DNA of 64,000 bases from Chloroflexota bacterium (GTDB taxonomy: Bacteria; Chloroflexota; Dehalococcoidia; E44-bin15), in the NCBI GenBank assembly GCA_034189655.1, contig JAXHUE010000003.1, positions 35,969 to 99,968 of the forward strand. The letters run 5' to 3'. The notes beneath the pieces were generated by a model, which had not been told where the DNA came from, searched no databases, and saw only the letters and a list, made by a program, of their open reading frames with translations. Of the stretch, positions 3,034 through 44,921 are shown one piece after another (position 1 is the first letter of the stretch; every line of letters begins with the position of its first letter). A program made the position numbers and the translations under genes.

Positions 3034-3216
3034 GTTATATCCTCCGTATCTATGATAGCAGACCGCTCCTCTACGAGCAACACACAGGGCGAGCCGGGCG
3101 CGGCATGTGCCTCGTGCAACGAGCGAGCGGCCGGGGCAGGCCCCTGGCGCGCCCCCTTACAGAGGTGGCGGATTGCCGCGTCCAGTGGCCTATGCTATAC
3201 TCGTGGCGGAGGCCCA

Positions 3217-4426
3217 GATGCCCATCGACCTGGTGAGGCTGGCGTTGCAGGTAGAGGGGCTCGCCGCCGAGCTCAAGGCAGGGGAGCGGAAGGCAGGGGA
3301 GCGCCTGGAGAGCGCCGTCGCCGCGCTCTGGGCCCAGGCCGACGCACTCGAGCAGTTTCGCGCCCGGCTCGCCGCGAGCCGTACTAGCTGGCTGGTGGCC
3401 GGCCTCGTCGACGGCCTGGGCGGGCGGGTGTCGCCGCCCCCCTGTCCCGGCGAGTTCACCGTCGTTGCCACCGATGGCTCCCACATCGATGTTGACCGTC
3501 ACAGCTCGGTGAGGTGCTGCCTGATTAACATCGGGAGCGCCGTGCTCCGCTACGGTGAGAGCCCTGGGGCCGAGCTCGTGGCCGTGCCCCAGCTCCTCTT
3601 CGGCGATGAGCTTATCATCGCCGACCCCTCCGCCCCCGGGGGTGGCGAGCGCGTCGAGGGGGCGCTCCTGGGGCTTGTGCGCGGCGTGGCCGAGTGCGAC
3701 GCGCTCGCCGCCCTCCTCGAGGGGCAGCCCGTAGAGCGGCCCGTGCTGGGCCTCATCGACGGCTCCCTCATCCTGTGGGGCCTGGCGGGGCGAGACTTCG
3801 AGGAGCAGAAGAGGTTCGTGAGGGAGGAGCTCCTCGACCGCCGTTACCTGGACGCCCTCGAGCGCATGAGGGTGCGCAGCGGGCGCGGGCCCTGTGTCCC
3901 CGCCAGCTACATAAGCTACCCGCGGAGCGCCGACGTAGTGAATGCGCTGCGCGTAGGCCTGTGCCCCCATGATGTCGCCGACTGCGACCGCTACTGCGCC
4001 GGGAACAGGGAGCGGGGGTGCGATGCCGTGTCCGGCGTGTGCGATGCCGACCTCTTCGCGGTGCTCCTCATGCCTGGCCAGAGGTCGGAGGCCTTCGTGA
4101 GCGGCTCCCGCTTCATGCAGCGGCACTATGGAGAGCACCAGATATGCTTCTTCTACTTGAAGCTGGAGGAGGAGGTGGCCCGGGTGGAGGTGCCGCGCTG
4201 GGTGGTGGATGGGGGGCTCCTGGACCTGGTGCACTGCCTGGTCCTCGACCAGTGCCGCCGCGGGCTGGGCTACCCGGTGGCGCTCCAGGAGGCGCACGAG
4301 CAGGCCGTGGTCACCGCCGCCTGTCGCGAGCAGTTCTGGGGGCTCATGGAGGGCGTCCTTGCCGAGGGCGGCGTGGCGCTGGGGGGCTCGGCCAAGCGCA
4401 TGAGCAAGCGCACGCGCTGGGTGTAA
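3217..4426 (+). CDS. nurA: NurA-family nuclease (DNA end-resection 5'-3' exo/endonuclease, RNase H-like fold)
   Basis: Two DGS motifs (VVATDGSHIDV and GLIDGSLILWG) at spacing characteristic of NurA domain catalytic Asp motifs. ~400 aa. The ATG at 3217 is preceded by GGCGGAGG, so the ORF-track start at 3107 is probably too early. First gene of an operon that ends in a HerA-like ATPase. Confidence 0.6.
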
Positions 4427-4516
4427 GAGCAGAGAGGTTCTGCACCGGGGCCAGGCCCCGGCGCAGCGCGTCTGTTTGAGTGTATAAGTATTAAAGTGAG
4501 GCGTGGGAGAGAGAGC

Positions 4517-5104
4517 GTGCCCACCAGGATAGGCGAGGTCATCGAGGCATCCACTGCGGAGTTCGTCGCCCAGTGCTACGAGCTGCACCGTCCGCCCCCC
4601 CTGGGCAGCCTGGTGCGCACCCGCGAGGGGGAGGTGGAGGTCTACGGCGTGGTGAGCCATGCCCAGACCCAGGGCATCGAGCCGGGGCGGCGCCCCATCG
4701 CCAGGGGCCGTGAAGAGGCCGTCGAGGAGGACATCTATCGCGCAAGCCCGCAGCTTGCCCGGCTGCTGCGCACCGATTTCAGCGCCCTCGTGGTGGGCCA
4801 CCGCGACGGCGAGCGCATCAGGCACTACCTGCCCCCGCGGCCGGCCATGCTCCACGGGTTCGTCCATGTCTGTGAGCGGGCGGAGGTCGCCGAGTTCAGC
4901 CAGTCCCTGGACTTCTTGAGCATCCTGGTCGGCGCCTGCGGGCAGGGGAGTGGCGATGAGCTGGTGGCCGCCGCGGTGCGCCAGGCGGCGGCGGCGCACG
5001 GCGACCCCCGCTCCTTCCTGGTGCGTGCCGGCAAGGAGCTCGCCGTGCTCCTGGGCGGCGACAGCCAGCGCCTGGGCATTATCTTGAGGAGGATAAAGGG
5101 GTGA
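4517..5104 (+). CDS. Hypothetical protein with HAS-barrel-like N-terminus (no ATPase domain), operonic between nurA and herA
   Basis: GTG at 4517 is preceded by GGGAGAGAGAG. N-terminus RIGEVIEASTAEFVAQCYELHRPPPLGSLVRT..EVEVYGVVSHAQT resembles the N-terminal HAS barrel of HerA-type proteins. The stop overlaps the herA GTG start (GTGA), suggesting translational coupling. Confidence 0.5.
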   Translation: MPTRIGEVIEASTAEFVAQCYELHRPPPLGSLVRTREGEVEVYGVVSHAQTQGIEPGRRPIARGREEAVEEDIYRASPQLARLLRTDFSALVVGHRDGERIRHYLPPRPAMLHGFVHVCERAEVAEFSQSLDFLSILVGACGQGSGDELVAAAVRQAAAAHGDPRSFLVRAGKELAVLLGGDSQRLGIILRRIKG

Positions 5105-6778: not shown

Positions 6779-8251
6779 ATGGTGCCCACCACTGGCCCGA
6801 TGACACGCCGTCCCCTCGTCGAGGAGATCGATGCCCCCTCCGCACTGGAGGCCTTCTCCCTGATCAGGGGGCGTCCCCACAGCTTCTTCCTCGATAGCGG
6901 CATGGGCCGCGAGCGCCTGGGCCGCTACTCGTTCATCGGCAGCGACCCCTTCCTGGTGCTCAAGAGCTACGGCCGCGATGTCTGCCTGGTCGAGGGCTGC
7001 AACGAGACCAGGATGAGCGCCGACCCCTTCGACGTGCTGCGGGAGGTACTGTCCCGGTACGCCCTCGACCCCGGCCCCGCGCCCATCCCCTTCACCGGCG
7101 GCGCCGTGGGCTACCTCGGCTACGACCTGTGCCACTTCGTCGAGCGCCTGCCCCAGACCGCCGCCGACGACCTGGGGCTCCCCGAGCTCTACCTGGCCTT
7201 CTACGACGGTGTCATCGGCTTCGACCACCTGGAGGGGCGGTGCTACGTCGCCGCAAGCGGCCTTCCCTGTGAGGAAGAGGAGCGGCGGCTGCGCCGCGCC
7301 CGGGAGCGCCTCGACGAGCTCAAGGACATCGTGGAGCGGGCCCCGCGGCAGGGAGAGGAGCGCCCCATGGAGCACGGCCAGCCCGCGGCGACCCCTGTGT
7401 CCAGCGTCGTGCCACAGTCAAACTTCACCCACGAGGGGTATGTGCGCGCGGTCGCGGCGGCGCGGGAGTACATCTGTGCCGGCGACATCTTCCAGGTGAA
7501 CCTGTCGCAGCGGTTCCAGGCCCCGCTCGACGTCGCCCCCTTCGAGCTGTACCGGCGCCTGCGCGCCATCAACCCGGCGCCGTTTGCCAGCTACTTAAAC
7601 CTCGACGGGGTGACCATCGTCAGCGCCTCGCCGGAGCGGTTCCTCCGCACGAGCGGCGACCTGGTGGAGACCCGCCCCATCAAGGGGACGAGGCCCCGGG
7701 GGCGCACGCCGGCCCGGGACCAGGCACTGGCCTGGGAGCTGGCGCACAGCGTCAAAGACCGCGCCGAGAACGTGATGATAGTAGACCTGGAGCGCAACGA
7801 CCTGGGGCGCGTGTGCCGCTATGGGACGGTGCGGGTGAGCGAGCTGTGTGCCCTGGAGCGCTATGCCACGGTGTTCCACCTCACCTCCACGGTGGAGGGC
7901 AGGCTGCGCCACGACCGAGACCGCGTAGACCTGCTCAAGGCCACCTTCCCTGGGGGCTCGATCACCGGGGCCCCCAAGGTGCGTGCCATGGAGATCATAG
8001 ACGAGCTGGAGCCCACGCGGCGGGGGGTCTACACCGGCTCCATCGGGTATGTGGGCTTCGATGGAGAGATGGACTTGAACATCGTCATTCGCACCTTCGT
8101 GGTAGCGGGGGGAAAGGCCTACTTCCAGGTAGGAGGGGGCATCGTGTACGATTCCGACCCCGAGGCCGAGTACGTGGAGACGCTGGACAAGGCGAGGGCC
8201 CTCGTCGAGTCGCTTGGGCCCCAGCCGCTCCCGGCACCAGAGGAGAGGTGA
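6779..8251 (+). CDS. pabB: Aminodeoxychorismate synthase component I (chorismate-binding enzyme, PabB/TrpE family)
   Basis: Chorismate-binding domain motifs (NPAPFASYLNL, SASPERFLR, ETRPIKGTRPRG, FPGGSITGAPK, RGVYTGSIGY). Assigned to pab rather than trp because the partner amidotransferase and a class IV aminotransferase (ADC lyase) lie downstream. Confidence 0.75.
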   Translation: MVPTTGPMTRRPLVEEIDAPSALEAFSLIRGRPHSFFLDSGMGRERLGRYSFIGSDPFLVLKSYGRDVCLVEGCNETRMSADPFDVLREVLSRYALDPGPAPIPFTGGAVGYLGYDLCHFVERLPQTAADDLGLPELYLAFYDGVIGFDHLEGRCYVAASGLPCEEEERRLRRARERLDELKDIVERAPRQGEERPMEHGQPAATPVSSVVPQSNFTHEGYVRAVAAAREYICAGDIFQVNLSQRFQAPLDVAPFELYRRLRAINPAPFASYLNLDGVTIVSASPERFLRTSGDLVETRPIKGTRPRGRTPARDQALAWELAHSVKDRAENVMIVDLERNDLGRVCRYGTVRVSELCALERYATVFHLTSTVEGRLRHDRDRVDLLKATFPGGSITGAPKVRAMEIIDELEPTRRGVYTGSIGYVGFDGEMDLNIVIRTFVVAGGKAYFQVGGGIVYDSDPEAEYVETLDKARALVESLGPQPLPAPEER

Positions 8252-8299
8252 CGGGGTGGCCAATTGTAGCAAACCACCTCCAGTACCACGTAATAGCTA

Positions 8300-8328
8300 T
8301 TGACAAACGGGTGGGAATATACTATAAA
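8300..8328 (+). promoter_or_regulatory. Sigma70-like promoter for the repeat-protein gene (TTGACA - 17 nt - TATAAA)
   Basis: TTGACA at 8300-8305 and TATAAA at 8323-8328 with a 17-nt spacer, in a locally AT-rich intergenic stretch. Followed by GGAGAAGGGAGATGAGCC (RBS) and ATG at 8442. Confidence 0.6.
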
Positions 8329-8441
8329 ATAGTGCCAAGGGTGGCGGTGGGCGTGAGTATCACAGGTTCACTTTGCCTGTTTACAGTGTGTCTTGGAAAT
8401 AGGAGTGGTGAGTGGAAAAGACTGGAGAAGGGAGATGAGCC

Positions 8442-11321
8442 ATGAGAAGTAAATATCCTGGGCTCACCAGGCCGACGGCGGTGCTCATAGCGCTGGCACT
8501 GATCGCCACACTTCTCGCCATCGTTATCCCGACGACCATTGGCTCGGCGGTCAACGAGGAGTGGGCCAACGCCGTCGTCGAGGAGGCGACTGAGAGGGTG
8601 GTCAACCCCGATAACGCCCTGGGCCCCAACGATGGCACGTGCGCCACCATGAGGCGCAGCGCCGAGCTTACCCTGGACATGGGAGTCGGCGAGGAGGCGC
8701 TGGACGGCCCGGGCAACGACCTCAAAGTCTATTCCCAGGGCGGTGACTACGAGGTCTTCGTGTGGGACGGCTTCACCTGGCAGTCGCTGGGTATTGGCGC
8801 CGGCACTCAGGAGTTCGACCTGGCCGATGCCGGCGTGGCCCAGTCGCGGTACGTGAGGATTGAGAATCGCACCAAGGGTGATATATGCATCGATGCCGTA
8901 GAGGTGCTGGGCGGCGAGCCCAAGCCCAGGATAACCGCTCCTGGCTACGAGGCCGACCTCACCGGCAATACCCAGATAGTGGCCGAGGACGAGGATGATG
9001 GCAACATCACCGATTGCTGGTTCTACTACTGGTACGACCTCGACCAGGACTGCGTGGCCGATGAGGGCGAGGACACCTGGCACCTCATAGGCCACGATAG
9101 CGTTGGCGGCAATTGGAGCGTGTGGTGGGACACCGGCAACTACAGCGACTGCTGCTACATCCTGAAGGCCGTGATGGAGAACTCCAGGGGCATCCAGGGT
9201 GACAGCTACGAGCAGGGCTTCCCCCACAACGTGCAGCTCACCAACCACGACCCCCAGCCCGAGATAACCGCCCCTGATGACCAGACCCCCTGCGATGCCG
9301 CCCCGGTGAGTGGCAACGTGACCCTCACCGCGGTGGACAACAGCTTTGAGCAGGGGGCAGACGTCACAGAGTGCACGTTCGAGTACTACTACGATGAGAA
9401 CATGAACTGCGACGACGATGACGGCAACCAGTGGACCGACATCGCCGGCATGGGCGCTAGCGGTGTGGTCAAGGGTAACGGTGGCGAGGGCTACGAGTTC
9501 ACCTACGACTGGGACACCACCCAGATGCCAGACTGCTGCTACCTCCTCCGTGTCACCATGGAGGACAAGCACGGGCGTGCCAACACCACGGACCATATCA
9601 ACATCGCCCTCTCCAACCACGACCCGCAGCCCGTGTTCTTGAACCCCGGCGAGGACGACACCGTGCAGGGCACCATCCTGCTGGAGGTAGAGGACGCCAG
9701 CCTTGACCAGGGCAGCGACGTGATATGCACCACCTGGGAGTACTGCTACGCCACCGACGAAAGCCAGTGCAGCGGTGATGACTGGAACCTGATACTGCAG
9801 GACTGCGACCCCGTCGGTGACACCTGGAGGCTGTGGTGGGACACCAACCAGGTACAGGACTGCTTCTACACCATCCGCGCCACCATGGAGGATGAGCACG
9901 GCCGTATCGGGGTGAGCTACCTCCACGTCGGCGTGGGCAACGACCCGCCGGTGGTCGAGATAGAGCAGCCCTACAACAACGACCTCCTCTGTGAGGACAA
10001 CCCGGTGAGTGGCAACGTCACCGTCAGGGCCAAGGACACGCAGCAGGCCACCGACATCGAGGCCGCCACCTTCCGCTACTACTATGACACAAACCAGGAC
10101 TGCGTGGCCAACGACGGCAACTCGTGGGTGCAGTTCGGCTACGATGGGACGAAGGAGATGGTGGGCGGCAACGCCACCTTCGAGGTGAACTGGGACACGA
10201 GCCAGCTCAACGACTGCTGCTACATCGTCCGCGTCTACATATCCGACCTCCACGCGCTGAACGGCTATGACACCCTCTGCGTGGCCCTCACCAACCACAA
10301 CCCGGTGCCCGAGATCACCCAGCCCGAGGGCAACACCACCATAAGCGGCACCCAGAGGATCATCGCCAAGGACACCGGCTTTGACCTGGGCAACGACATC
10401 AACCTGCCTGGCCACGGCAACGTGACCTTTGAGTATGCCACCGCAGACCAGAACTGCCAGCAGGTGGGCCAGTGGACAGACATGGGGGCGACCGTCACCC
10501 AGGTCGGCAGCCCGCCCGACCGCACCTGGTACGTGGACTGGGACACCACCCAGGTGGAGGACTGCTTCCACCTCATCAGGGTGACCCTGGAGGACAAGCA
10601 CGGCAGAACTGGCACCACCACCATCTGCGTGGGCGTGGCCAACAACCCGCCCCAGCCGCGGATGACGGCCCCGCCTGATGCCACTCCCTGCACCGCGGGC
10701 GAGGTGAACGGGAACATCGACCTGGTGGCGGTGGACGACAAGGCCAACAGCACCGTGCAGAGCTGCGTCTTCGAGATCTGGGACGACTTCAACCAGAACT
10801 GCACCGCCGACGAGGGGAACACCACCTGGGTCGCCATCGGCTCGGGCACGCTCTCTGCGGGCAACTGGACCCTCGATTGGGACACCACTGATGTCCCCGA
10901 CGAGTGCTACCTGGTGCGGGCCAACATGACCGACATCCACGGTCTGGGCAACGTCTCCACCCACATCAACCTGTACGTGAACAACCTGCGCCCGGCGCCG
11001 TACTTCTGGTATCCGTACGACAGGTCGGACTATCCTGTGGGCGACCCCGTCAACCTCTACGTGTACGACAAGACCGGGGCCACCGATATCCACGACGCCG
11101 ATGTGTACTTCGAGTGGTGGGACCCGGTAGCGAGGGAGTGGGTCTACATAGGCACCGGCACCTCTTACTATGAGAGCTCCATGGGCATGTGGATGTGGTA
11201 CAACTACAACCTCTACTACCCCGACCGCGACTGGATAGCGGTGAGGGTGACCATGACCGACAAGGGGGCCACACCACAGTCCGGCGACGACATCGTCCAG
11301 ATTTACCGAGTGCAAGAGTAG
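8442..11321 (+). CDS. Large exported Cys-rich tandem-repeat protein (959 aa): N-terminal signal/anchor, ~125-aa beta-sandwich-like domain, then seven ~105-120-aa repeats of an unrecognised domain
   Basis: N-terminus MRSKYPGLTRPTAVLIALALIATLLAIVIP is a signal peptide or type II anchor. Seven repeats (aa ~160-270, 271-393, 394-500, 501-620, 621-735, 736-849, 850-959) share three conserved blocks: PQP(E/V)IT.P at the start, C.F.YYYD.N.(D/N)C..D(D/E)GN.W in the middle, and W.(L/V).WDT.....DCCY..R..MED.HGR at the end. The protein is acidic and N/T/D/W/Y-rich with conserved Cys pairs. The opposite-strand 997-aa ORF is a V/H/G-rich shadow. Confidence 0.7.
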   Translation: MRSKYPGLTRPTAVLIALALIATLLAIVIPTTIGSAVNEEWANAVVEEATERVVNPDNALGPNDGTCATMRRSAELTLDMGVGEEALDGPGNDLKVYSQGGDYEVFVWDGFTWQSLGIGAGTQEFDLADAGVAQSRYVRIENRTKGDICIDAVEVLGGEPKPRITAPGYEADLTGNTQIVAEDEDDGNITDCWFYYWYDLDQDCVADEGEDTWHLIGHDSVGGNWSVWWDTGNYSDCCYILKAVMENSRGIQGDSYEQGFPHNVQLTNHDPQPEITAPDDQTPCDAAPVSGNVTLTAVDNSFEQGADVTECTFEYYYDENMNCDDDDGNQWTDIAGMGASGVVKGNGGEGYEFTYDWDTTQMPDCCYLLRVTMEDKHGRANTTDHINIALSNHDPQPVFLNPGEDDTVQGTILLEVEDASLDQGSDVICTTWEYCYATDESQCSGDDWNLILQDCDPVGDTWRLWWDTNQVQDCFYTIRATMEDEHGRIGVSYLHVGVGNDPPVVEIEQPYNNDLLCEDNPVSGNVTVRAKDTQQATDIEAATFRYYYDTNQDCVANDGNSWVQFGYDGTKEMVGGNATFEVNWDTSQLNDCCYIVRVYISDLHALNGYDTLCVALTNHNPVPEITQPEGNTTISGTQRIIAKDTGFDLGNDINLPGHGNVTFEYATADQNCQQVGQWTDMGATVTQVGSPPDRTWYVDWDTTQVEDCFHLIRVTLEDKHGRTGTTTICVGVANNPPQPRMTAPPDATPCTAGEVNGNIDLVAVDDKANSTVQSCVFEIWDDFNQNCTADEGNTTWVAIGSGTLSAGNWTLDWDTTDVPDECYLVRANMTDIHGLGNVSTHINLYVNNLRPAPYFWYPYDRSDYPVGDPVNLYVYDKTGATDIHDADVYFEWWDPVAREWVYIGTGTSYYESSMGMWMWYNYNLYYPDRDWIAVRVTMTDKGATPQSGDDIVQIYRVQE
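8919..11318 (+). repeat. In-frame coding tandem repeat array (7 diverged units of ~320-370 bp)
   Basis: DNA-level reflection of the seven protein repeats. Units are diverged (protein identity roughly 30-50%), so this is not a recent satellite expansion. Confidence 0.6.
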
Positions 11322-11354
11322 CCCAGCCGCGGTTGCGGCCGGAAAGAGACCGCC

Positions 11355-11389
11355 GGGGGGCGTCCTTCAATGGGCGCCCCCCTTTCGTT
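11355..11389 (+). terminator. Rho-independent terminator after the repeat-protein gene
   Basis: GGGGGGCG - 11-nt loop - CGCCCCCC followed by TTTCGTT, 34 nt downstream of the stop. Confidence 0.55.
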
Positions 11390-11484
11390 GGGGTGGTGTG
11401 CCCCTCCCGTCCCAGCCTTGCCCCCTCCCGCCGTAGCTGCTACAATCTGTGTGGGGGGAGTGCCTTTATAAAGGGGAGGGGGCC

Positions 11485-12087
11485 TTGGTCATCATCATCG
11501 ATAACTACGACTCCTTCTGCTACAACCTGGCCCAGTACATCGGGGAGCTGGGCTGGGAGCCCATGGTGTGCCGCAACGACCAGCTCTCACTGGTGGAGAT
11601 CGCGGCCCTGGCCCCGTCCCACATCGTGATCTCTCCCGGGCCGGGCACCCCGCTCGATGCCGGCATCTCCAACGCAGTGATACGCCGCTTTGCCGGCCAC
11701 ATCCCCATACTGGGGGTGTGCCTGGGACACCAGTGCATCGGCCACTGCTTCGGCGGGCACATAGTGCGCACCGTGCCGGTGCACGGCAAGTCCTCCCTCA
11801 TCTACCACGACGGCAAGACGCTGTACCGCGGCCTGGCCAACCCCTTCGAGGCCGGGCGCTACCACTCCCTGGCCGTCGCCCCGTGGGGCCTGCCCGCGGA
11901 GCTTGAGCTCTCGGCGCAGACCGAGACCGGGGAGGTCATGGGGGTGCGCCACCGCCAGTTCGTGGTCGAGGGCATCCAGTTCCACCCCGAGTCCATCCTC
12001 ACCGCCTGTGGCCACGATGTGCTGCGTGCCTTCCTGGGCATAGAGCATCCGCGGTGGCAGGCCGCCCTGGGGGGGCCCCATGGCTAG
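11485..12087 (+). CDS. pabA: Aminodeoxychorismate/anthranilate synthase component II (class I glutamine amidotransferase)
   Basis: LVIIIDNYDSFCYNLAQY N-terminus and GVCLGHQCIG catalytic Cys motif, with HPES near the C-terminus. Likely TTG start at 11485, 4 nt after GGGGAGGGGG; the ORF-track start at 11449 adds 12 non-homologous residues. Confidence 0.8.
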   Translation: MVIIIDNYDSFCYNLAQYIGELGWEPMVCRNDQLSLVEIAALAPSHIVISPGPGTPLDAGISNAVIRRFAGHIPILGVCLGHQCIGHCFGGHIVRTVPVHGKSSLIYHDGKTLYRGLANPFEAGRYHSLAVAPWGLPAELELSAQTETGEVMGVRHRQFVVEGIQFHPESILTACGHDVLRAFLGIEHPRWQAALGGPHG

Positions 12088-12931
12088 CTGGGTGTACGTA
12101 GACGGGGCCCTGGTGCCCGGCGACCAGGCCGCCGTCTCCCCCCTCGACCGCGGCCTGCTCTACGGCTACGGCCTGTTCGAGACCGTGCGCGCCTACGAGG
12201 GGCGCTGCTTCCGCCTGGGGCGGCACCTGGAGCGGCTCATGGCAGGTGCCGAGCGGCTCGCCCTCGCCGCCGCGCTCGACCGCGATGGCCTGGAGCGGGC
12301 GGTGTATCGCACCATGGAGGCAAACGGCCTCCGCGATGCCCGGGTGCGGCTCACCGTCACCGCCGGCGTAGGCGAGCGGGGGCTCTCCCCACCGCTGTCG
12401 GGGGCTGCCACCGTCATCGTAGTCGCCGAGGGGCTGGCCGCGCCGGGCCACGACGAGGGGGTGAGCGCCGCCATCGTCGGTGCGAGGAGGAACAGCGCCT
12501 CGCCGCTCGCCGGGATAAAGTCGTTGAACTACCTGGAGGCCCTGGTGGCCCACGCCCAGGCCCTGGCCCAGGGTGCCCAGCAGGCCATCATGTTAAACGA
12601 GCGCGGCCACGTCGCCGAGGGCAGCACCAGCAACATCTTCCTGGTCTCCGCAGGGAGACTGCTCACCCCGGCGCCGGCCTGTGGCATCCTCTGTGGCATA
12701 ACCAGGGAGGCCGTGCTGGAGTGTGCCGCCGACCTCGGCATCGAGGCCGCCGAGGTGGAGCTATCCCCGGAGGCCCTCTTCGCCGCCGACGAGGTCTTCC
12801 TCACCAGCTCCATAGTCGAGCTTGCGCCCGTGGCCCGCGTGGACGGCCGGGCCATCGGCGACGGCGGGCGTGGCAAGGTCACCTCCCTGCTCGCCGCCGC
12901 CTACCGGGAGCTGGTGCGGCGGGAGAGATGA
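12080..12931 (+). CDS. pabC: Aminodeoxychorismate lyase (class IV PLP aminotransferase fold)
   Basis: 283 aa, class IV aminotransferase features (YGYGLFETVRAY, EGSTSNIFLV, GITR). Size and operon context with pabA (8-nt overlap) favour ADC lyase over IlvE. Confidence 0.65.
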   Translation: MASWVYVDGALVPGDQAAVSPLDRGLLYGYGLFETVRAYEGRCFRLGRHLERLMAGAERLALAAALDRDGLERAVYRTMEANGLRDARVRLTVTAGVGERGLSPPLSGAATVIVVAEGLAAPGHDEGVSAAIVGARRNSASPLAGIKSLNYLEALVAHAQALAQGAQQAIMLNERGHVAEGSTSNIFLVSAGRLLTPAPACGILCGITREAVLECAADLGIEAAEVELSPEALFAADEVFLTSSIVELAPVARVDGRAIGDGGRGKVTSLLAAAYRELVRRER

Positions 12932-15149: not shown

Positions 15150-17509
15150 GCGGCGTGACCTTCGCCTCGATGTGGTGGCTCACGGTCGAGCTCCTGGGGC
15201 TCATCGCCCTGCCGCTCACCCTGGTGGTGTTCAAGCGCCTCCCCGACAGGGGCTATGCCTTCAGCAAGGCGCTGGCCATACTGCTGGTCTCTTTTATCTT
15301 GTGGCTCCTGGCCTATGCCCACATCCTGCCCAACACCTGGTGGGCCATCATACTCATCATAGCCGCGGGTGCTATAGGCTCCCTGGTGCTGGCGGTGCGC
15401 CGTCGCCGCGAGCTCGCCGAGTTCTTCAGGCGGGAGCGCACCATCATCATCGCCACCGAGGCCGTGTTCCTGCTCGCCTTCGTCGCCTATCTCGCGATAC
15501 GCGCCTTCAACCCGGACATCCTCTTCGGCGAAAAGCCCATGGACTTCGCCTTCATGAACGGCATCTTGAGGAGCACCTACTTTCCCCCCATCGACCCGTG
15601 GCTTGCCGGCTACAGCATCAGCTACTACTACGGCGGCTACCAGATAATGGCCATGCTCACCATGCTTACCGGCGTGCCCGCGGCGGTGTCGTTCAACCTC
15701 TCCCTGGCACTGGTCTTCGCCCTGACCACCGTCGGCGCCTTCAGCGTGGTCTACAACCTGGTACGCATGGGCAGGGGTGGGGTCAGGGCGGCGGTGGGGA
15801 TGGGCCTGGTCGCCGCCGGCCTGCTTTTAGTCCTGGGCAACCTGGTGGGGGTGCTGGAGATGCTGCATGCCCACGGGTTCGGCAGCGCCGGGTTCTGGGA
15901 GTGGGTGGGCATCGCCGGGCTGGACCACCCCTATAGCGGCGTGACCTGGTACCCCAACGAGCACTGGTGGTGGTGGCGCTCGACGCGGCTGATAAACACC
16001 CTGTCCCCCGGCGTCAGCAACGGTCTGGACTACACCATCACGGAGTTCCCCGCCTTCAGCTTCCTCTTCGCCGACCTCCACCCCCACCTCATGGCGCTGC
16101 CCTTCTCCCTGCTCACCATGGCGATGTGTCTGGAGCTCATGGTGTCGGCGCAGTCGCCGGGGGTGGCCTGGTTCAAGGCCAACTGGCCCCGCTTCCTGGT
16201 CTTTGCCATCGCCCTGGGGTCGCTCGGCTTCATCAATACCTGGGACATCACCACCTATAGCCTGCTCTTCGCACTGGCCGCGCTCATCGGGGGCTACCTG
16301 GCCTGGGGGCGGATGAGCCTCGGCCTGCTCAAGGACGTGGCCCTGTTCGTCGCTGCCCTCGTTGCCTGTGCCTTCGTGCTCTACCTCCCCTTCTACATCG
16401 GGCTCGACACCCAGGTCCAGGGCATCGGACTGGTGGGCGATATCGACACCCAGCCGCACCACTTCTTCCTCTTCTGGGGGGTCCTGCTGTTCATCACCGT
16501 GTCCTTCGTGGTGGCCCAGTCGTGGGGCGCGCTCAAGGAGGGCCTGCCGTCGTGGGGGTATGTGCTCCTGGCGGTGGCGGTGCCCGTCCTGCCGTTTGTC
16601 ATATGGGCCGTGGCCAGCCAGGCCGGCGGTGTGGGCCTCCTCGCCGCGATGGGCAAGCTGTGGCACGTGCTTCCCTTAATAATAGTGCTCATACTGGCCC
16701 TCCTGGTCATCGTGAAGAGGGCGCAGCGCGTCGTGGCCAGCGACGACGGGGACGGCGGTGAGGAGCGGGCCTCCATCTTCGCCATGGTGCTCCTGTTCAC
16801 CGGCTTCCTCCTCGTCATGGGCTGCGAGCTCTTCCTGGTGAAGGACTTCTTCTATCCCTGGCGCATGAACACCATGTTCAAGCTGTACTACATGGCGTGG
16901 CTGGTGCTCGCCATCTCAGCGGCCTATGGCCTCTACTGGATCGCGGTGCACTGGCGGCCGGCCTCACTCGCTGCCATGGTAGGTCGCGCCACCTGGTGGG
17001 TGGTCTTGGGCTTCCTCATCCTGGGCAGCCTCATCTACCCGGTGGCGGCCTCCATCACGATGTACGATTTCAACCGCTCGCCCACGCTCAATGGCCTGGC
17101 CTTCGTGGAGAGCGCCCGTCCATCGGAGTACGAGGCCATCGCCTGGCTCAACAGCGATGTCGAGGGGGCGCCGGTCATCGTGGAGGCCACCGGCGGGTAC
17201 TTCACCGACTACTTCCGCATATCGGCGCGCACCGGGCTGCCCACCATCCTGGGCTGTCCCGGGCACGAGCGCCAGTGGCGTGGCGGGGACGAGCTCTTCG
17301 TCGGCCGCGAGGCAGACATCGATGCCATCTACGAGGGCGAGGACATGGCCCAGGTCGAGGCCCTCTTCCAGGAGTACGATGTCACCTACGTCTACGTGGG
17401 CCACCTGGAGCGGGAGCAGTACGGTGAGGCAGTGGCCGACCGCTTCGCCGGCTTCATGGACGTGGCCTTCGCCAACGAGGGCGTCACCATATACCAGGTG
17501 AGGGAGTAG
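15146..17509 (+). CDS. DUF2298 / TIGR03662 (Chlor_Arch_YYY) family integral membrane protein
   Basis: Polytopic membrane protein of ~790 aa with the hallmark [10 protein letters not shown] triple-Tyr motif. GTG at 15146 overlaps the ftsY stop. The ORF-track 14192 start is an artefact of an open frame overlapping ftsY. Confidence 0.7.
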
Positions 17510-17511
17510 CG

Positions 17512-19263
17512 GTGGAGAGGGTGAAGGCGTGGGCCGTGCGCTGGGCGCGCCCCCTGCTCAACTGGGAGGTTGCGGCATACGTCTTTCTAGCGGTGGTGGC
17601 GCTGGGGATGCACCTGTGGGCCCTGGACGCCCGCGCCTTCCAGTACGATGAGACCCTGCACGCCTTCTATAGCTGGAAGCTGTATACCGGGGAGAGCTAC
17701 CAGCACAGCCCCATGATGCACGGCCCCTTCCAGTTCTACGGCACCGCGGCGTTGTTCCACCTCTTCGGCGATAGCGATGTTACGGCGCGCCTCCTCCCCG
17801 CCCTCTTCGGCACCGCGCTGGTGGCGCTGCCGTACCTTCTGCGTCGCCAGATGGGCCGCTGGGGGGCCATGGCCGCTGCTGTCCTGCTGGCCTTCTCCCC
17901 CACGCTGCTCTACTTCGGGCGCTTTGCCCGCAACGACATCTACATCGTGTTCTGGACGCTGCTCCTGGTGGTGTGCCTGTGGCGCTACATCGACGAGGGC
18001 AAGTCGCGCTACCTGTACATCGGGGCCGCCGCCTTGAGCTTGAGCTTCTGCACCAAGGAGGTGAGCTGGATCACCACCGGCATCATCGGCCTCTTCCTCC
18101 TCATCTGGGCCGGCCGTGAGCTCGTCGGCCGGGTGCGGCGCCGTGTCGACCTGAAGGCCCTCTCGCCACCCGCCGACTACCTGATCGTCGTCGGCACCCT
18201 CTCCCTGCCCCTGTTCGCCGCCTTCTGCCAGCTCATCCCCGGCGTGGACATCGATGGCGGGGCGGTGTGGCAGAAGGCGCTGGTGGTGGGGATACTCTTC
18301 GCGGTATCGCTGGCCGTCGGGCTACGCTGGGACTGGCGGCGCTGGTCGATCGCGGCCATCATCTTCTACGGCATCTTCTGCCTGTTCTACTCGTCGTTCT
18401 TCTCCAACGTAGATGGCCTGGCCAGCGGGATATGGGGCTCGGTGGACTACTGGCTGGCCAACCGCGACGCCCCGCGCATCGTGCAGCCCCTGTTCTACTA
18501 CCCCATGGTGCTGGCCACGTACGAGTTCCTGCCCCTGCTCTTCGGCCTGGTCGGCGGGGTGTACTACGCGATAAAGGGGGACGCCTTCTCCCGCTTCCTG
18601 GTGTACTGGGCGGCGATGGCCCTCATCCTCCAGGTGTGGTCCGGGGAGAACACCGCCTGGCTCTCCGTCCACATCGCCCTGCCCCTCATCCTGCTCGCCG
18701 CGATGTTCATCGGCCGCGCACTGGCCGGAGGCTGGCCCGGGCGCTGGGCGCGGGTGGTGCCCGCCGCCGTCGTCCTGGCGCTTGCCGTCGTCTTCCCCTT
18801 CAGCGTGCACGTCGCCCTCCAGGCGAGCTACAATGTGAGCGACGAGCCGCCGCAGATGCTGGTCTACGCCGGCATGAGCCACGAGATGCGCCAGGTCGTG
18901 GACCAGATAGAGGGGCTGGCCGCAGACAGCGGCAAGGGGACAGGGTTGAGGATAAGCGTCGATAACCCCCTCTACTGGGACTGGGCGTGGTACATCAGGG
19001 ACTACGACGTGCAGTGGCTGTACGCCACCGACCTGGTCCCCGACGGGGACGTGCTGCTGCTGGCCCCGGAGAACGAGGCCGCCTTCGAGCCCCACCTGGG
19101 CGGCTACGGCGAGGGGCAGCACTTCCACGAGCGTATCTGGTTCCCCGAGGAGTACCGCGACCACGGCATCGGGTGGTGGTGGCGCTACTTCTTGAGCAAG
19201 GAGACCGAGGGCCCCTACTGGTCGAGCGAGAGCATCGTCTACGTCGCCCAGGGGGTGCCGTGA
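17512..19263 (+). CDS. TIGR03663-family GT-C-fold membrane glycosyltransferase-like protein (PMT/ArnT-like, 2-TM-rich, 583 aa)
   Basis: N-terminal region with ...DETLHAFYSWKLYTGESYQHSPMMHGPFQFY, typical of GT39/ArnT-like dolichyl-phosphate-mannose transferases. The family is characteristically adjacent to TIGR03662. Confidence 0.65.
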   Translation: MERVKAWAVRWARPLLNWEVAAYVFLAVVALGMHLWALDARAFQYDETLHAFYSWKLYTGESYQHSPMMHGPFQFYGTAALFHLFGDSDVTARLLPALFGTALVALPYLLRRQMGRWGAMAAAVLLAFSPTLLYFGRFARNDIYIVFWTLLLVVCLWRYIDEGKSRYLYIGAAALSLSFCTKEVSWITTGIIGLFLLIWAGRELVGRVRRRVDLKALSPPADYLIVVGTLSLPLFAAFCQLIPGVDIDGGAVWQKALVVGILFAVSLAVGLRWDWRRWSIAAIIFYGIFCLFYSSFFSNVDGLASGIWGSVDYWLANRDAPRIVQPLFYYPMVLATYEFLPLLFGLVGGVYYAIKGDAFSRFLVYWAAMALILQVWSGENTAWLSVHIALPLILLAAMFIGRALAGGWPGRWARVVPAAVVLALAVVFPFSVHVALQASYNVSDEPPQMLVYAGMSHEMRQVVDQIEGLAADSGKGTGLRISVDNPLYWDWAWYIRDYDVQWLYATDLVPDGDVLLLAPENEAAFEPHLGGYGEGQHFHERIWFPEEYRDHGIGWWWRYFLSKETEGPYWSSESIVYVAQGVP

Positions 19264-24468: not shown

Positions 24469-27400
24469 TCACGCCCGCTCCACGCGCACCGCGGCCACCT
24501 TGAGCTCTGGTATCTTGGCCACCGGGTCCAGGCCTGGGTTGGTGACGATATTGGTACGGCTCTCGGTGAAGTGGAAGCTCATGGAGACCACCCCCGGCGG
24601 CGAGCCATCGGTCACGCGGGCGTGAGCGAAGACCTCCCCCCGCCGCGAGGCAACGCGCACCCTGTCGCCGCCGCCTATGCCCAGCCTCTCGGCGTCCGCG
24701 GGGTTGATCTCCACCAGCTCCTGCCCCCGTATCTGGTTTAAGCCGGCCACGCGCCTGGTCATGGTGCCGGTGTGGTACTGGTTGAGCAGGCGCTCCGTGG
24801 TGAGCACCAGGGGGTAGTCGCTGCTGGGCTCCTCCAGGGGCGGCCGGTAGGTGAGCGGGATGAAGCGGCCCAGGCCGCGGGAGAAGAGCTGGGTGTGGAG
24901 GATGGGCGTCCCCGGGTGGTCGTCGAAGGGGCAGGGCCAGGCCAGGCCCCCCTCCTCCAGCCGCTGGTAGGAGATGCCGCCGTAGGCCGGGGAGAGCCCG
25001 GCGATCTCGTCGAAGACCTGCGAGGGGTGGGAGAAGTCGAAGCCCCCGGCCCCCATGCGCTGGGCGATGCGGCACACTATCTGCCAGTCGGGCAGGGCCT
25101 CTCCCACCGGGTCGATGGCCCGGCGCACCCGCTGCACGCGGCGCTCGGTGTTGGTGAAGGTGCCGTCCTTCTCGGCGAAGCTCGCTGCCGGCAGCACCAC
25201 GTCGGCGAGCTGGGCGGTCTCGCTCAAGAAGATGTCCTGCACCACCAGGAAGTCCAGGTTCTTCAAGGCCTGCTCCACGTGGGTGGCGTCGGGCTCACTC
25301 AAGAGCGGGTTCTCTCCCACCAGGTAGATGGCGCGCACCTCGCCGCGGTAGGCGGCATCTACCATCTCGGTGAGGGTGAGACCGGGCGCGGGGTTTAGCG
25401 TCACATCCCAGGCCGACTCGAACTTCACCTGGAGGTTGGGGTCGGCCACGCCCTGGTAGCCAGGGTAGACGTTGGGCAGGGCGCCCATGTCACAGGCCCC
25501 CTGCACGTTGTTCTGCCCGCGGAGGGGGTTCACCCCCGTCGAGGGGCGGCCCACGTTGCCGGTGAGCATTGCCAGGTTGGCGGTGGCGATCACGTTATCG
25601 GTGCCGTGGGAGTGCTGGGTGATGCCCATGGCGTAGAGGATGGTGGCCGGGCTGCCCTCGGCGTAGAGGCGGGCGGCCTCGGCGACGCGCTCCTGGGGCA
25701 CGCCGGTGAGCTGCTCCACTCGCTCTGCGTCGAACCACTCGAGCGACTCCCGGAACTCGGCATAGTTCTCGCAGCGCTCCTCGATGAACTGCTTGTCGAT
25801 CAGGCCCTGCTCCACGATGACCCGCATCATCCCCATGAGCAGTGCGACGTCGCTCCCCGGCCGCTGCTGCAGCCAGACGGTGGCGAAGCGGCACAGGTCG
25901 ATGTGGCGCGGGTTGGCCACGATGAGAGCGGCCCCCCTCCTCACCGCGTCCTTTATCTCGAGGCCGATGATGGGGTGGCTCGCCGTGGTATTGGTGCCGA
26001 TGGCGAAGATACAGCGGGCCTGGCCGATCTCGGCGATGGAGTTGGTCATGGCCCCGCTGCCGAAGCTCTGGGCCAGCCCGGAGACGCTGGGGGCGTGGCA
26101 CAGGCGGGCGCAGTGGTCGACGTTGTTGGTGCCCATCGCGGCACGGGCGAACTTCTGCAAGAGGTAGTTCTCCTCGTTGGTGCAGCGCGCCGAGGCGATC
26201 AGGGCAAACCTCTCGCCCCGGTACTGGGGGAGCCTGCTGGCGATGAGCTCCAGGGCCTCGTCCCACGAGGCCGGCACCAGCCCCCCTGCTTTCCTGACGA
26301 GGGGGGTGGTGAGCCTCTCGGGGTGGCTCACGAAGTCGGCGATGCCGAAGCGGCCCTTGACGCATGTCTTGCCCCGGTTCACCGGGCTCTCCGGGTCGCC
26401 GCGCACGTCGACGATGGTGTTGCCGACGACGCCCAGGTACAGGCTACAGCCCACGCCGCAGTAGGGGCAGACGGTCTTCACCTCGGCCAGTGGCGGCCGG
26501 CTCCCCTTGGACACCAGCGCCCCCACCGGGCAGCTGGCGATGCACAGGCCGCACGACTCGCAGGTGGTATCGGCCAGGGAGCGGGCCCCAGGCGGCACTG
26601 CCACCCGGTAGGCGAAGCTCCACGCCCCCACGCCCTGCACGGAGAGGCAGGTGCGGGCACAGCGGGCGCACATGATGCACTTATTGGCGTCGATCTCCAC
26701 GAAGGGGTGGGAGCTGTCCACGGGATAGTGGTAGCCTGCCTCCCTGGCGAGCGAGGGGGAGACCCCGTAGTCAGCGGCGAGGTGGCGCAGGGTGCAGCTC
26801 TCCACGGCGCCGCAGCCGCAGGCAAGGCAGCGCTGCGCCTCCTTCTGTGCCAGGTCCTGGGTGTAGCCGCGCTCTATCTCCTGGAAGTTGCCCTGTCTCT
26901 CGTCGGGGCGGAGCCGGGGCATGGCGCGCCGCGGCTGCCGCTCTATGGTGGCGAACTCCTCGCCCCCCAGCTCATCGAGCTCGCCCTTGCGCCAGTTGAA
27001 GGGCTTCGTGGCATCGGCGAGCGGCTCCCCGCGCAGGTAGCGGTCGATGGAGATGGCCGCCTTTCGACCCGCGGCCATGGCGTCCACGGCGCGCGCCGGC
27101 CCGGTGACGGCATCGCCGCCGGCAAAGACCCCCTCGATGTCGGTCTGGAGCGTCTCCTCGTCGGCCACGATGACGTCGCCCCTGCCTATCTGGAGGCCGT
27201 CGGCGCTGAAGGAGATGTCGGGGCCCTGCCCGATGGCGGCGATCACCGAGTCCACGGGCACGGTGAACTCGGAGCCGGGGATGGGCTCGGGGCGGGGGCG
27301 CCCGCTCGCGTCGGGCTCGCCCAGGGCCATGCGGGTACAGCTCAGGCTGGCCACCCGGCCGTTGCGGCCGTTCACCGTGGTCGGCGCCGCCAGGAAGTGG

Positions 27401-28536
27401 AGCCTGATCCCCTCCTCCTCGGCCTCCTCAACCTCCCACTCGCTGGCCGGCATCTCGGCGCGAGAGCGGCGGTAGACGATGGTGACCTCCTCGGCGCCCA
27501 TGCGCAGCGCGGTGCGGGCGGCGTCGATGGCGGTGTTGCCGCCCCCGACGACCGCTACCCGCCGCCCCACCTCCATGGGCTGGCCCAGGGCGCAGGCGCG
27601 GAGGAAATCGGTGCCCGGCAGCACCCCCTCCAGCTCCTCCCCCTCCACCCTCATGCGCTGGCTCTTGTGGGCGCCGATGGCGAGGAAGCAGGCGTCGTAG
27701 CCCTCCTGGAGCAGGCCCTGGAGGGTGATGTCCCGGCCCAGGGCGCACCCCGTCCTGATGTCGACGCCCATCTGGGCGATGGCCGCTATCTCCCGGTCGA
27801 GGATATCCTTGGGCAGGCGGTAGTCCGGTATCCCGTAGCGCAGCATCCCCCCCGGCTGGGGCAGGGCCTCGAAGACGACGACGGCGTGCCCCATGCGCGC
27901 CAGGTAGAAGGCGCAGGCCAGCCCCGCCGGCCCCGCGCCGACCACGGCCACGCGGCGGCCGCTGTCCGGCCCCCGGGGCGGGACGTACATAGGCTCCGAG
28001 GAGAACAGGTCATAGTCGGCGGCGGCGCGCTTTAGGTGGCAGATGGCCAGGGGCTCGTCCACCAGGTTACGGCGGCACGCCTCCTCGCAGGGGTGGGGGC
28101 ACACCCTGCCCAGGACGGCGGGCATGGGCACCCGCTCCTTGATGAGGGCGACGGCGTCCCGCAGGCGCCCCCTGGCGATCAAGTGTATGTAGCCCTGGAC
28201 GTCTATCCCCGCGGGGCAGGCCAGCTCACAGGGGGCGGTGCAGTCGCCGTAGTGGGAGGCCAGGAGCTCCTCCAGGCGGCGCTTCCTGGCGCTGCGCACC
28301 CTCTCGCTGTCGGTCTGCACCGTCATGCCCGGCCAGATGGTGGTGGCGCAGCTGGGCACCATGCCGTGACCGGCCACCTCGACGGTGCATATCAGGCAGC
28401 CGCCCAGCGGCTCCAGGTGGTCGTCGTGGCACAGGGTGGGGATGGGGATGCCGCTCGCGCGGCAGACCTCCAGGATGGTCTCGTGGGCCTCGGCCCGTAG
28501 CTCTCTCCCGTTTACGGTAATGCTTACCTCGGTCAC
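24469..28536 (-). CDS. fdhA: Formate dehydrogenase catalytic (alpha) subunit fused to N-terminal 2Fe-2S ferredoxin and GltD-like NAD(P)H/FAD domain (1355 aa), Cys-type (non-seleno)
   Basis: N-term 2Fe-2S (CHDDHLEPLGGCLICTV). GltD-like domain (RRVAVVGAGPAGLACAFYLARMGH). MopB N-terminal 4Fe-4S (CPYCGVGCS). Fdh active-site region NVDHCARLCHAPSVSGL with Cys at the Sec/Cys position and AMGITQHSHGTDN. Long opposite-strand ORF (25606..28035) is a shadow. Confidence 0.8.
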   Translation of the reverse strand: MTEVSITVNGRELRAEAHETILEVCRASGIPIPTLCHDDHLEPLGGCLICTVEVAGHGMVPSCATTIWPGMTVQTDSERVRSARKRRLEELLASHYGDCTAPCELACPAGIDVQGYIHLIARGRLRDAVALIKERVPMPAVLGRVCPHPCEEACRRNLVDEPLAICHLKRAAADYDLFSSEPMYVPPRGPDSGRRVAVVGAGPAGLACAFYLARMGHAVVVFEALPQPGGMLRYGIPDYRLPKDILDREIAAIAQMGVDIRTGCALGRDITLQGLLQEGYDACFLAIGAHKSQRMRVEGEELEGVLPGTDFLRACALGQPMEVGRRVAVVGGGNTAIDAARTALRMGAEEVTIVYRRSRAEMPASEWEVEEAEEEGIRLHFLAAPTTVNGRNGRVASLSCTRMALGEPDASGRPRPEPIPGSEFTVPVDSVIAAIGQGPDISFSADGLQIGRGDVIVADEETLQTDIEGVFAGGDAVTGPARAVDAMAAGRKAAISIDRYLRGEPLADATKPFNWRKGELDELGGEEFATIERQPRRAMPRLRPDERQGNFQEIERGYTQDLAQKEAQRCLACGCGAVESCTLRHLAADYGVSPSLAREAGYHYPVDSSHPFVEIDANKCIMCARCARTCLSVQGVGAWSFAYRVAVPPGARSLADTTCESCGLCIASCPVGALVSKGSRPPLAEVKTVCPYCGVGCSLYLGVVGNTIVDVRGDPESPVNRGKTCVKGRFGIADFVSHPERLTTPLVRKAGGLVPASWDEALELIASRLPQYRGERFALIASARCTNEENYLLQKFARAAMGTNNVDHCARLCHAPSVSGLAQSFGSGAMTNSIAEIGQARCIFAIGTNTTASHPIIGLEIKDAVRRGAALIVANPRHIDLCRFATVWLQQRPGSDVALLMGMMRVIVEQGLIDKQFIEERCENYAEFRESLEWFDAERVEQLTGVPQERVAEAARLYAEGSPATILYAMGITQHSHGTDNVIATANLAMLTGNVGRPSTGVNPLRGQNNVQGACDMGALPNVYPGYQGVADPNLQVKFESAWDVTLNPAPGLTLTEMVDAAYRGEVRAIYLVGENPLLSEPDATHVEQALKNLDFLVVQDIFLSETAQLADVVLPAASFAEKDGTFTNTERRVQRVRRAIDPVGEALPDWQIVCRIAQRMGAGGFDFSHPSQVFDEIAGLSPAYGGISYQRLEEGGLAWPCPFDDHPGTPILHTQLFSRGLGRFIPLTYRPPLEEPSSDYPLVLTTERLLNQYHTGTMTRRVAGLNQIRGQELVEINPADAERLGIGGGDRVRVASRRGEVFAHARVTDGSPPGVVSMSFHFTESRTNIVTNPGLDPVAKIPELKVAAVRVERA

Positions 28537-28674
28537 CTGGGCAGTCCTCCTTAGCTCTGTAGCGCTGGGGATACGCTAGAGGTGGCCATGGTATATCTGG
28601 ACCCTCGGCGATGATTATAAAGAAAAGGGGGCCCAGGGTCAAACCTCCCTCCAGGTGGAGAGTGCCTCACTGTT

Positions 28675-38478: not shown

Positions 38479-38619
38479 CTCCTGTACAGGCCCGGCCCCG
38501 CGGCGGAAGACAGACGCCCCCTCACGTCATCGACATCGAAGAGGTGCCTGCGCAGCGAGGGCCCAGGCACATATGCCCGGGCCCATGCCTTTACCCACCC
38601 GGTGCCGTGCCGGCGGGCG

Positions 38620-39975: not shown

Positions 39976-39990
39976 TTCGTGCTCCCTCCT

Positions 39991-40956: not shown

Positions 40957-41038
40957 TCCTTTCTAAAGACCTGTCATAAAACAAGGGCCGAGGAACGACC
41001 CTTGTCTATGGGTGTTTCCTCCGGGCGACGGCCCGTGT

Positions 41039-44878: not shown

Positions 44879-44921
44879 AGCCGATTATAGCACAGGGGGC
44901 GCCTGTTTTCAATCGAGGAGG

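Follow-up and report, generated by a model that had tools for sequence, protein, structure and literature searches.

In a 64,000-nt stretch of DNA (the window) from a Chloroflexota bacterium (E44-bin15; GCA_034189655.1, contig JAXHUE010000003.1), whose numbering is used throughout unless another contig is named, the genes pabB and pabA-pabC are separated by a 3.2-kb segment carrying a gene for a repeat protein, here called REP. We consider it probable, at roughly 0.7, that this arrangement reflects an old split of the pab operon by an autonomous monocistronic unit (8300-11389) encoding an N-terminally anchored, immunoglobulin (Ig)-like surface stalk. An earlier reading of this DNA made from its letters alone (the sequence-only reading) had placed pabB, the 3.2-kb segment and pabA-pabC at coordinates that all check out; its treatment of pabA-pabC as one fusion did not hold, and there are instead two genes with an 8-nt overlap. 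The features of the locus are listed in Table 1.

The interrupted pab operon and the unit within it

The continuity of the pab genes was examined by a scan with PabB across one genome per GTDB species, which gave 80 loci. In 57 of the 80, pabA or pabC lay within 400 bp of pabB (median gap, 21 bp), and no locus had a kilobase-scale insert between pabB and pabA or pabC except L058, in which pabA is 1.2 kb downstream. The nine closest GTDB loci, from metagenome-assembled genomes (MAGs) of Dehalococcoidales, Dehalococcoidia or Chloroflexota with pabB 61-68% identical, all had the order pabB-pabA-pabC with nominal gaps of 6-33 bp, as taken between tblastn match ends. The earlier claim that these genes are normally contiguous was thus borne out. 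Relatives sharing the window backbone were found by a metagenome scan with the HerA protein. Two of these, L089 and L090 (HerA 79% identical), have the order HerA-pabB-pabA-pabC-MFS-FtsY, the pabB stop and pabA start overlapping by 4 nt as ATGA and the site being empty. L086 has the same genes, no REP and a spacer of ~75 bp. In L084, also REP-less, two tandem copies of a ~115-nt repeat element rich in G/C tracts (L084 5129-5447) make up the 335-bp pabB-pabA gap; the junction therefore tolerates other insertions. Since the pab genes are adjacent in relatives, with an ATGA overlap at an empty site, the pab operon of the window is interrupted. It resembles the contiguous pabB-pabA-pabC operons of Dehalococcoidia and many other phyla in gene order and orientation, with HerA upstream and MFS plus FtsY downstream as in L089/L090, and differs from them in the 3.2 kb with its own predicted promoter and terminator between pabB and pabA, and in a pabA that has TTG and its own promoter-like site instead of a short gap or ATGA.

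The anatomy of the segment supports a self-contained promoter-gene-terminator unit, as the sequence-only reading had proposed. REP has its own predicted, near-consensus sigma-70-type promoter, the -10 hexamer of which is TATAAA and not the consensus TATAAT. An exact TTGACA-N17-TATAAW occurs once in the window, and with one mismatch 3 sites were observed against 0.03 expected; the automatic promoter scan skipped this promoter because it demands T at the last -10 position. Only four stretches of the window have a GC content under 50% per 100 nt, and the promoter lies inside the largest of them, 8231-8470, in agreement with the AT-rich setting described earlier. Transcription would start near the conserved ATAGTGCCA box, and the good ribosome-binding site previously noted was found as GGGAG (8430-8434, +), 7 nt ahead of the REP ATG. 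Downstream of REP, the terminator-like hairpin has an energy of -48.3 kcal/mol (z = -3.4), and none of 200 shuffles folded as well; the GC-rich stem-loop of the earlier description therefore stands, whereas its T-tract is interrupted. A riboswitch or structured leader upstream of REP was considered and dropped, as an Rfam search of 8000-12000 returned no RNA family and the fold of the 5' untranslated region (UTR) was not significant either in the window (z = -0.33) or in the orthologous locus described next (z = +1.15). Elsewhere in the window, the only near-consensus TTGACA-17-TATAAT-type sites are 28614-28642 (-) and 44884-44912 (-), with one mismatch each; the first is just upstream of a gene for a 1355-aa molybdopterin/Fe-S oxidoreductase fusion (24469-28536, -).

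An orthologue of REP was found in L001, a locus in Chloroflexota MAG GCA_034189695.1 with HerA 78% and pabB 67% identical to those of the window. The order there is HerA, a 146-aa open reading frame (ORF), pabB and then REP directly. The product, P0002, has 1144 aa, is 35% identical over 98% of the query and has the same architecture of anchor, N-terminal domain, repeats and C-terminal domain. A repeat-profile search recovered a second copy on contig L163 of the same MAG, encoding a 585-aa N-terminal fragment (P0009) and 76% identical to the L001 gene in DNA. The window, L001 and L163 share a promoter block, TATTGACAAA-N-GTATAA with an A(T/A)AGTGC box after it, in which TATTGACAAA and GTATA are identical in all three; its presence at a second copy supports the view of promoter, leader, gene and terminator as one conserved unit. 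The terminator in L001 is of unrelated sequence, a G+C hairpin followed by TTTCTTTT (z = -2.7). Upstream of the L163 copy, the place of pabB is taken by ~900 bp of short repeat elements (L163 1-1029), including hairpins like CCCTCTCCC-TCAA-GGGAGAGGG-TTTTT and the motif CACCTGTCATTGCGAGGAGTGACAGCGAC, which are of the same family as those ending the L001 contig (L001 10816-11018). If the two contigs adjoin, as they may, the order would be pabB, REP1, repeats, REP2, with the two copies as a tandem pair.

Beyond the hairpin, the TTG start of pabA was confirmed to stand behind its own TACAAT -10 hexamer, and GGAGG is present as well. The gene caller made the same choice of start in L002, a contig of run SRR24907505 from a 99.5%-identical strain, and homologues align from residue 1. 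Both pabA hexamers are kept in L002 despite 8 differences across the 163-nt spacer. Judged by its match to consensus, the promoter-like site is probably functional and pabA would be expressed independently. A perfect 10-bp inverted repeat (11420-11429, GCCCCCTCCC; 11473-11482, GGGAGGGGGC) would let the -35 region of pabA base-pair with the ribosome-binding site of that gene, a pairing possible only in RNA reading through from the cassette. Masking of the ribosome-binding site by this helix was rejected as a candidate mechanism; the helix is in the minimum-free-energy fold, but with z = -0.3 to -0.4 it is at the level expected from composition.

These signals bear on the possibility that REP is simply part of the pab operon, with co-transcription from pabB to pabC and promoter and terminator arising by chance. 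In its favour, the genes share one strand, the T-tract of the terminator is imperfect, and a weak promoter-like hit is expected 0.8 times per 8 kb by chance. Chance would nevertheless have to account for an exact promoter that is unique in 64 kb, where even near-matches are in large excess, and for a promoter block kept in three copies while the proteins have diverged to 35% between genomes and the DNA to 76% within one MAG. The hairpin is significant and a functionally equivalent one follows the orthologue, and pabA has its own -35/-10 and Shine-Dalgarno, where the empty-site relatives have a 4-nt overlap that leaves no room for a promoter. We regard co-transcription as very unlikely.

We propose instead that REP is transcribed alone from the near-consensus promoter, with a ~106-nt 5' UTR, and that transcription stops at the hairpin. 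The unit would sit in an ancestrally tight, sometimes translationally coupled pabB-pabA junction, and the pab genes would now form two expression units, pabB with the upstream genes and pabA-pabC from its own promoter-like site, the latter insulated from upstream transcription by the cassette terminator. The promoter-like site, strong Shine-Dalgarno and TTG start of pabA would then be explained by a terminator that cuts off upstream transcription, whereas the empty-site relatives would rely on translational coupling.

Table 1. Coordinates of features at the interrupted pab locus
Feature	Position	Strand	Basis or remark
pabB (aminodeoxychorismate synthase component I), upstream flank of cassette	6779-8251	+	Pfam Chorismate_bind 1.7e-95, Anth_synt_I_N
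Predicted cassette promoter: -35 TTGACA (8300-8305), 17-nt spacer, -10 TATAAA (8323-8328)	8300-8328	+	Sequence reading
Predicted transcription start region: conserved ATAGTGCCA box (8329-8337), 5' UTR of ~106 nt	8329-8441	+	Box kept in window, L001 and L163
REP gene, one long ORF, 959 aa	8442-11321	+	ORF list and translation
REP residues 1-160: basic N terminus, ~23-residue hydrophobic stretch, orphan beta-rich N-terminal domain	8442-8921	+	Translation
REP residues 161-850: six tandem Ig-like repeats of 107-124 aa	8922-10991	+	Repeat alignments
REP residues 851-959: divergent seventh Ig-like domain, then stop	10992-11321	+	16% identity to repeats; conserved in P0002
Intrinsic-terminator-like hairpin (11355-11382), then TTTCGTT	11355-11389	+	Terminator scan; 11 pairs, 10 G-C
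pabA promoter-like site, TTGCCC-17-TACAAT with upstream TG	11418-11446	+	Only site called by scan in 8 kb (0.8 expected by chance)
pabA G-rich Shine-Dalgarno	11472-11481	+	GGAGG 5 nt before TTG start at 11485
pabA, TTG start	11485-12087	+	Pfam GATase 2e-50; NCBIfam trpG_papA over cut-off
pabC	12080-12931	+	Pfam Aminotran_4 5.4e-60

The REP protein and its possible place at the cell surface

The REP product has a mass of 106 kDa, a pI of 4.05 and 2.9% Cys. Its N terminus, MRSKYPGLTRP followed by 23 hydrophobic residues, is of a kind that by sequence reading is kept in P0002 and P0009, and REP has no C-terminal sorting motif. Adjoining the putative anchor is the sole non-repeat domain (~125 aa, aa 37-160), which is 43% identical to its counterpart in P0002. 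The rest of the protein was counted by HMMER as seven domains. Tandem Repeats Finder returned nothing on the REP DNA because the repeats are too diverged at that level (60-80%), and self-BLASTP of REP gave the identity match only; for this reason, motifs were used to set the limits of the repeats, and the alignment was made by hand and with MAFFT. This placed the repeat boundaries at 8922, 9255, 9627, 9948, 10305, 10650 and 10991, with the motifs PxPxIxxP, an acidic Cys loop D-x-N-x-N-C-x-A-D-D-G, WDT, DCCY and NHDP in common.

Repeat 6 was modelled with AF2 from an alignment of 17 repeats, and the model was all-beta with nine strands (pLDDT 95.8, pTM 0.88). Foldseek against the PDB gave 6 matches at E <= 1e-3 (best, 9e-5), including the 6tn6 mannanase, the CelAly B1 domain and a PD-1/antibody Fab complex, followed at E = 1e-3 to 3e-3 by CbhA Fn3-like modules and shark VNAR domains. 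These neighbours are accessory modules of Ig-like or Fn3-like type and variable-type domains of immunoglobulins. The modelled fold of the REP repeat is thus an Ig-like beta-sandwich. An antisense ORF of 997 aa (8322-11315, -) was dismissed as a mirror image produced by the high GC of the REP gene, the GC-rich position in it being codon position 1 (0.87) and not 3; the plus-strand ORF was accepted because the homology and fold evidence is all on that strand.

The whole REP protein had no Pfam match at E <= 0.01 and matched no NCBIfam family at standard thresholds. The best score to Big_7 (PF17957) was that of repeat 4, at 18.4 bits (E = 0.0035), under the gathering score of 24.1. A profile of the repeats (A4) matched 4562 representative proteins at E <= 1e-3, among them giants with up to 47 repeats, and Big_7 was present at 80-170 bits in the hits P0021 (170 bits), P0035 and P0044. 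By this transitive route the REP repeats appear homologous to bona fide Big_7 members. Two partial relatives, P0003 and P0004, share the REP repeat, and P0004 adds a dockerin over the Pfam cut-off, with Big_3_3 and cohesin just under it. Dockerin, cohesin and Big_3_3 are extracellular scaffolding modules. Homologues of REP itself are very rare, with 4 matches in 5.8 billion proteins, and no other REP-type repeats were seen in the window or in 160 other loci examined. A search with the C-terminal alignment A6 recovered nothing, including its own source proteins, and was counted as a failure of tool sensitivity and not as evidence.

Like Big_7 proteins and fibrillar-adhesin stalks, REP has an all-beta Ig-like fold with a PxPxIxxP start and a WDT motif, and a tandem array of 7 domains stands behind a putative N-terminal export or anchor sequence. 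It differs in that no repeat reaches the Big_7 gathering score, and in repeats of 107-124 aa, compared with a 70-position model, with an acidic Cys-containing insertion and DCCY. It differs further in having the putative anchor at the N terminus, in place of a C-terminal sortase or sorting signal, and in that no recognisable adhesive tip domain was found. REP adds a new member, restricted to its lineage, to the Ig-like surface-repeat proteins, and it is most likely a stalk-like surface protein, either an adhesin or an envelope component. We envisage that it is exported or held in the membrane by the N-terminal hydrophobic helix and that the seven Ig-like (Big_7-related) domains project as an extended cell-surface stalk, so that REP would act as an adhesin or envelope protein of this Dehalococcoidia-type Chloroflexota bacterium.

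We also considered whether REP may be the main surface-layer (S-layer) protein, with the strong promoter, leader and terminator serving very high abundance. S-layer-type units such as Lactobacillus slpA and Caulobacter rsaA are monocistronic and highly expressed, and combine a strong promoter, a long leader, an acidic secreted protein and a strong terminator. Part of these general properties can be found in a review of S-layers (PMC4232325). REP is alike in having a strong consensus-type promoter, a long leader (~106 nt), a single large, acidic, Thr/Asn-rich and predicted-secreted protein and an adjacent strong terminator; genes for DUF2298 and PMT_2 glycosyltransferase proteins are found 4-8 kb downstream of it, and S-layers are present in cultivated Dehalococcoidia (PMC10284905). 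It is unlike them in that no SLH or other known S-layer, anchoring or lattice domain was found with Pfam and NCBIfam, and in that Cys is high (2.9%), AGG is frequent (43% of Arg codons, compared with 17% in reference genes) and the codon index is no higher than average. S-layer genes evolve fast. Even so, the absence of REP from this locus in close relatives and the great rarity of its homologues would be unexpected for an essential envelope protein, and beads-on-a-string Ig domains would fit a stalk or adhesin better than a lattice. Because of the lack of S-layer domains, the high Cys and the absence of raised codon bias, an S-layer role is the weaker alternative to an adhesin or envelope protein, and we think it unlikely.

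Age of the insertion and number of events

A rival reading makes the 3.2-kb segment a foreign islet that recently landed in the pab operon. The GC content of REP is ~62% and that of the flanks ~70%, an AT-rich patch lies upstream, and the few homologues in the databases would suit such an origin. However, when 26 genes of the window were used as reference, the GC at third codon positions (GC3) of REP was 0.882, compared with 0.904 +/- 0.024, and its codon index was 0.679, compared with 0.691 +/- 0.042. The deficit in GC falls in codon position 1 (0.575). REP has 10.9% D, 9.3% T, 6.5% N, 5.0% Y and 3.3% W, and its lower GC is explained by this amino acid composition. The comparison of GC3 and codon usage with neighbouring genes, which the sequence-only reading had suggested as a check, therefore gave native values. 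Divergence from L002 points the same way, REP having 3.5 differences/kb and the neighbouring genes 1.2-9.3/kb; the two cassette spacers have 21 and 49 differences/kb, and the promoter hexamers are kept.

The absence of mobile-element remnants was confirmed in wider searches. No direct or inverted repeats beyond chance-level 13-mers flank the cassette, the 64-kb window has no tRNA, and no integrase, transposase or recombinase is found among the flanking genes (HerA, pabB, pabA and pabC), the neighbours of the cassette being housekeeping genes. A plasmid or phage origin of REP found no support, since no tblastn match was obtained in plasmid and phage collections. Together with an orthologue at the same site in L001, in which pabB is only 67% identical, these results make a recent acquisition extremely improbable, and we consider it largely refuted. 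The earlier suggestion of a gene insertion into an operon thus holds as a historical event, by virtue of the empty sites in relatives, and fails if recent or foreign entry is meant, given native GC3 and codon usage and the L001 orthologue. A relative with the same gene at the same place, which would speak for an ancestral gene, was found in part: L001 carries the orthologue and promoter block after pabB, while other relatives are empty. With its host-like codon usage, neighbour-like strain divergence and a fast-evolving orthologue with the same promoter block at the same junction, the insertion is real, old and domesticated, and neither recent nor foreign.

Whether the unit entered once was addressed with parsimony-informative sites in four genes (NurA, the 202-aa gene, HerA and pabB) and neighbour-joining trees. 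L001 grouped with the REP-less L089 against L084 and L086 by 56:8:7 sites, and its HerA and pabB are 83% and 78% identical, respectively, to those of L089/L090. Several observations weigh against an old split by a single autonomous surface-protein unit, and the first comes from these counts: 41 sites place the window outside the L001+L089 pair, compared with 31 joining window and L001 and 5 for the third topology, so that a single vertical insertion would call for either subsequent losses or another tree. The L001 contig, moreover, ends 256 bp past REP, so that only its pabB side is visible. The promoter, start site, termination and independent transcription of pabA are predicted from consensus matches, and because the T-tract (TTTCGTT) is interrupted, read-through into pabA is possible. 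The membrane anchor or export signal of REP is likewise read from the N-terminal sequence only. The N-terminal domain had no Pfam or NCBIfam match, found no homologues in a word-indexed database search and reached a best E of 1.2 in a PDB profile search; its AF2 model, from a 2-sequence alignment, was weak (pLDDT 62.7), and Foldseek with that model gave nothing below E = 0.1. Finally, 2.9% Cys is unusual among classical bacterial surface-layer proteins.

The 31 sites that join the window and L001 were examined as a possible recombination footprint beside REP, which was rejected because they are spread over all four genes. They are mostly V/I, R/K and G/S differences. The window genome has a GC content of 67% and the L001 MAG 64%, compared with 52-53% in the REP-less L084, L086 and L089, which are closest to them in gene content; the shared high GC of both REP-bearing genomes would be expected to give this pattern, and it confounds the local phylogeny. 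At the empty site of L089, the ATGA overlap argues against a deletion scar, and the very low identity of REP argues against any recent transfer. Two readings remain from these sequence comparisons. Either the REP-bearing lineages may be true sisters with one old insertion, or two or more events may have taken place, as separate gains, as a gain with losses, or as exchange through flanking homology.

The second of these would make the cassette recurrent or laterally exchanged, by repeated entry at a permissive pabB-pabA junction or by spread via homologous recombination across the flanking pab genes. Such a history would suit the presence of REP in the window lineage and L001 and its absence from L084, from L086 and from the L089/L090 pair that groups with L001; the unlikelihood of a deletion scar in L089; the other small repeat elements held in the L084 gap; and the second REP copy, with the same promoter block in another context, in the MAG of L001. 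On the other hand, a REP identity of 35% between flanks of 67-78% identity is not that of a recent transfer, the sites joining window and L001 are not clustered beside REP, and no recombination signature or integration machinery was found; the trees come from 4 genes, by neighbour-joining and parsimony counts, under strong GC heterogeneity. We regard recurrence or exchange as possible but doubtful, and its more specific form, a portable surface-protein cassette that lacks a mobility gene and arrived independently at the junction in two high-GC Dehalococcoidia lineages, by landing or by flanking-homology exchange, as unlikely. Were it true, the junction would be a place where fast-evolving envelope genes dock repeatedly and are tolerated, and one lineage would now have two diverged copies separated by short-repeat arrays.

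Neighbouring genes and significance of the locus

The pab cluster of the window is complete, with a PabB-type enzyme, a class-I amidotransferase PabA and a PabC of the class-IV aminotransferase fold. The pabB product passed the cut-offs of two NCBIfam models, PabB-clade2 (411.7; cut-off, 408.55) and pabB (363.3; cut-off, 328.4), and all TrpE models were under cut-off. PabC is assigned to the class-IV aminotransferase fold at the Pfam level only, the ADC-lyase equivalogs of NCBIfam being under cut-off. The spacing between HerA and pabB in the window is 34 bp.

The HerA-pabB junction is variable as well. L086 has there a 927-aa ORF and, after it, a gene for a 274-aa membrane protein (L086 11618-15226), the 927-aa product resembling a DNA methyltransferase or restriction enzyme as read from its letters alone; L084 has only that membrane protein (L084 2785-3612), and the 146-aa ORF of L001 is at L001 5170-5610. 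Further upstream in the window, NurA is directly followed by the 202-aa gene and HerA (3107-5104). L001 has two extra genes between NurA and the 202-aa gene, one of 256 aa and one of 257 aa, the latter with a faint TPR hit (L001 1-3459), and a gap of ~2.3 kb at this position in L086 and L089, known from tblastn coordinates only, suggests an L001-like arrangement. Directly after FtsY in the window, 15200-19263 encodes a DUF2298 membrane protein (382 bits) and a PMT_2/PMT-type glycosyltransferase, which are candidate envelope-glycosylation genes. Genes for the ACS/CODH beta subunit and RACo (36526-43264, -) indicate a Wood-Ljungdahl-type anaerobe, which fits a Dehalococcoidia-like Chloroflexota host.

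The only unusual element of this locus is the patchy distribution and duplication of a unit conserved from promoter to terminator. An old split of the pab operon would make the locus a clean, datable case in which a self-sufficient gene divided a tightly coupled biosynthetic operon that was later repaired, as the downstream genes gained promoter and start signals of their own. The locus also defines a Cys-rich, fast-evolving form of the Ig-like surface repeats that is restricted to one lineage, together with an orphan N-terminal domain, in an uncultivated, acetogenic-type Dehalococcoidia bacterium whose envelope proteins are barely characterised. Current concepts are left unchanged by these results, which are of use mainly for annotation and for choosing a candidate surface marker or adhesin in this group.

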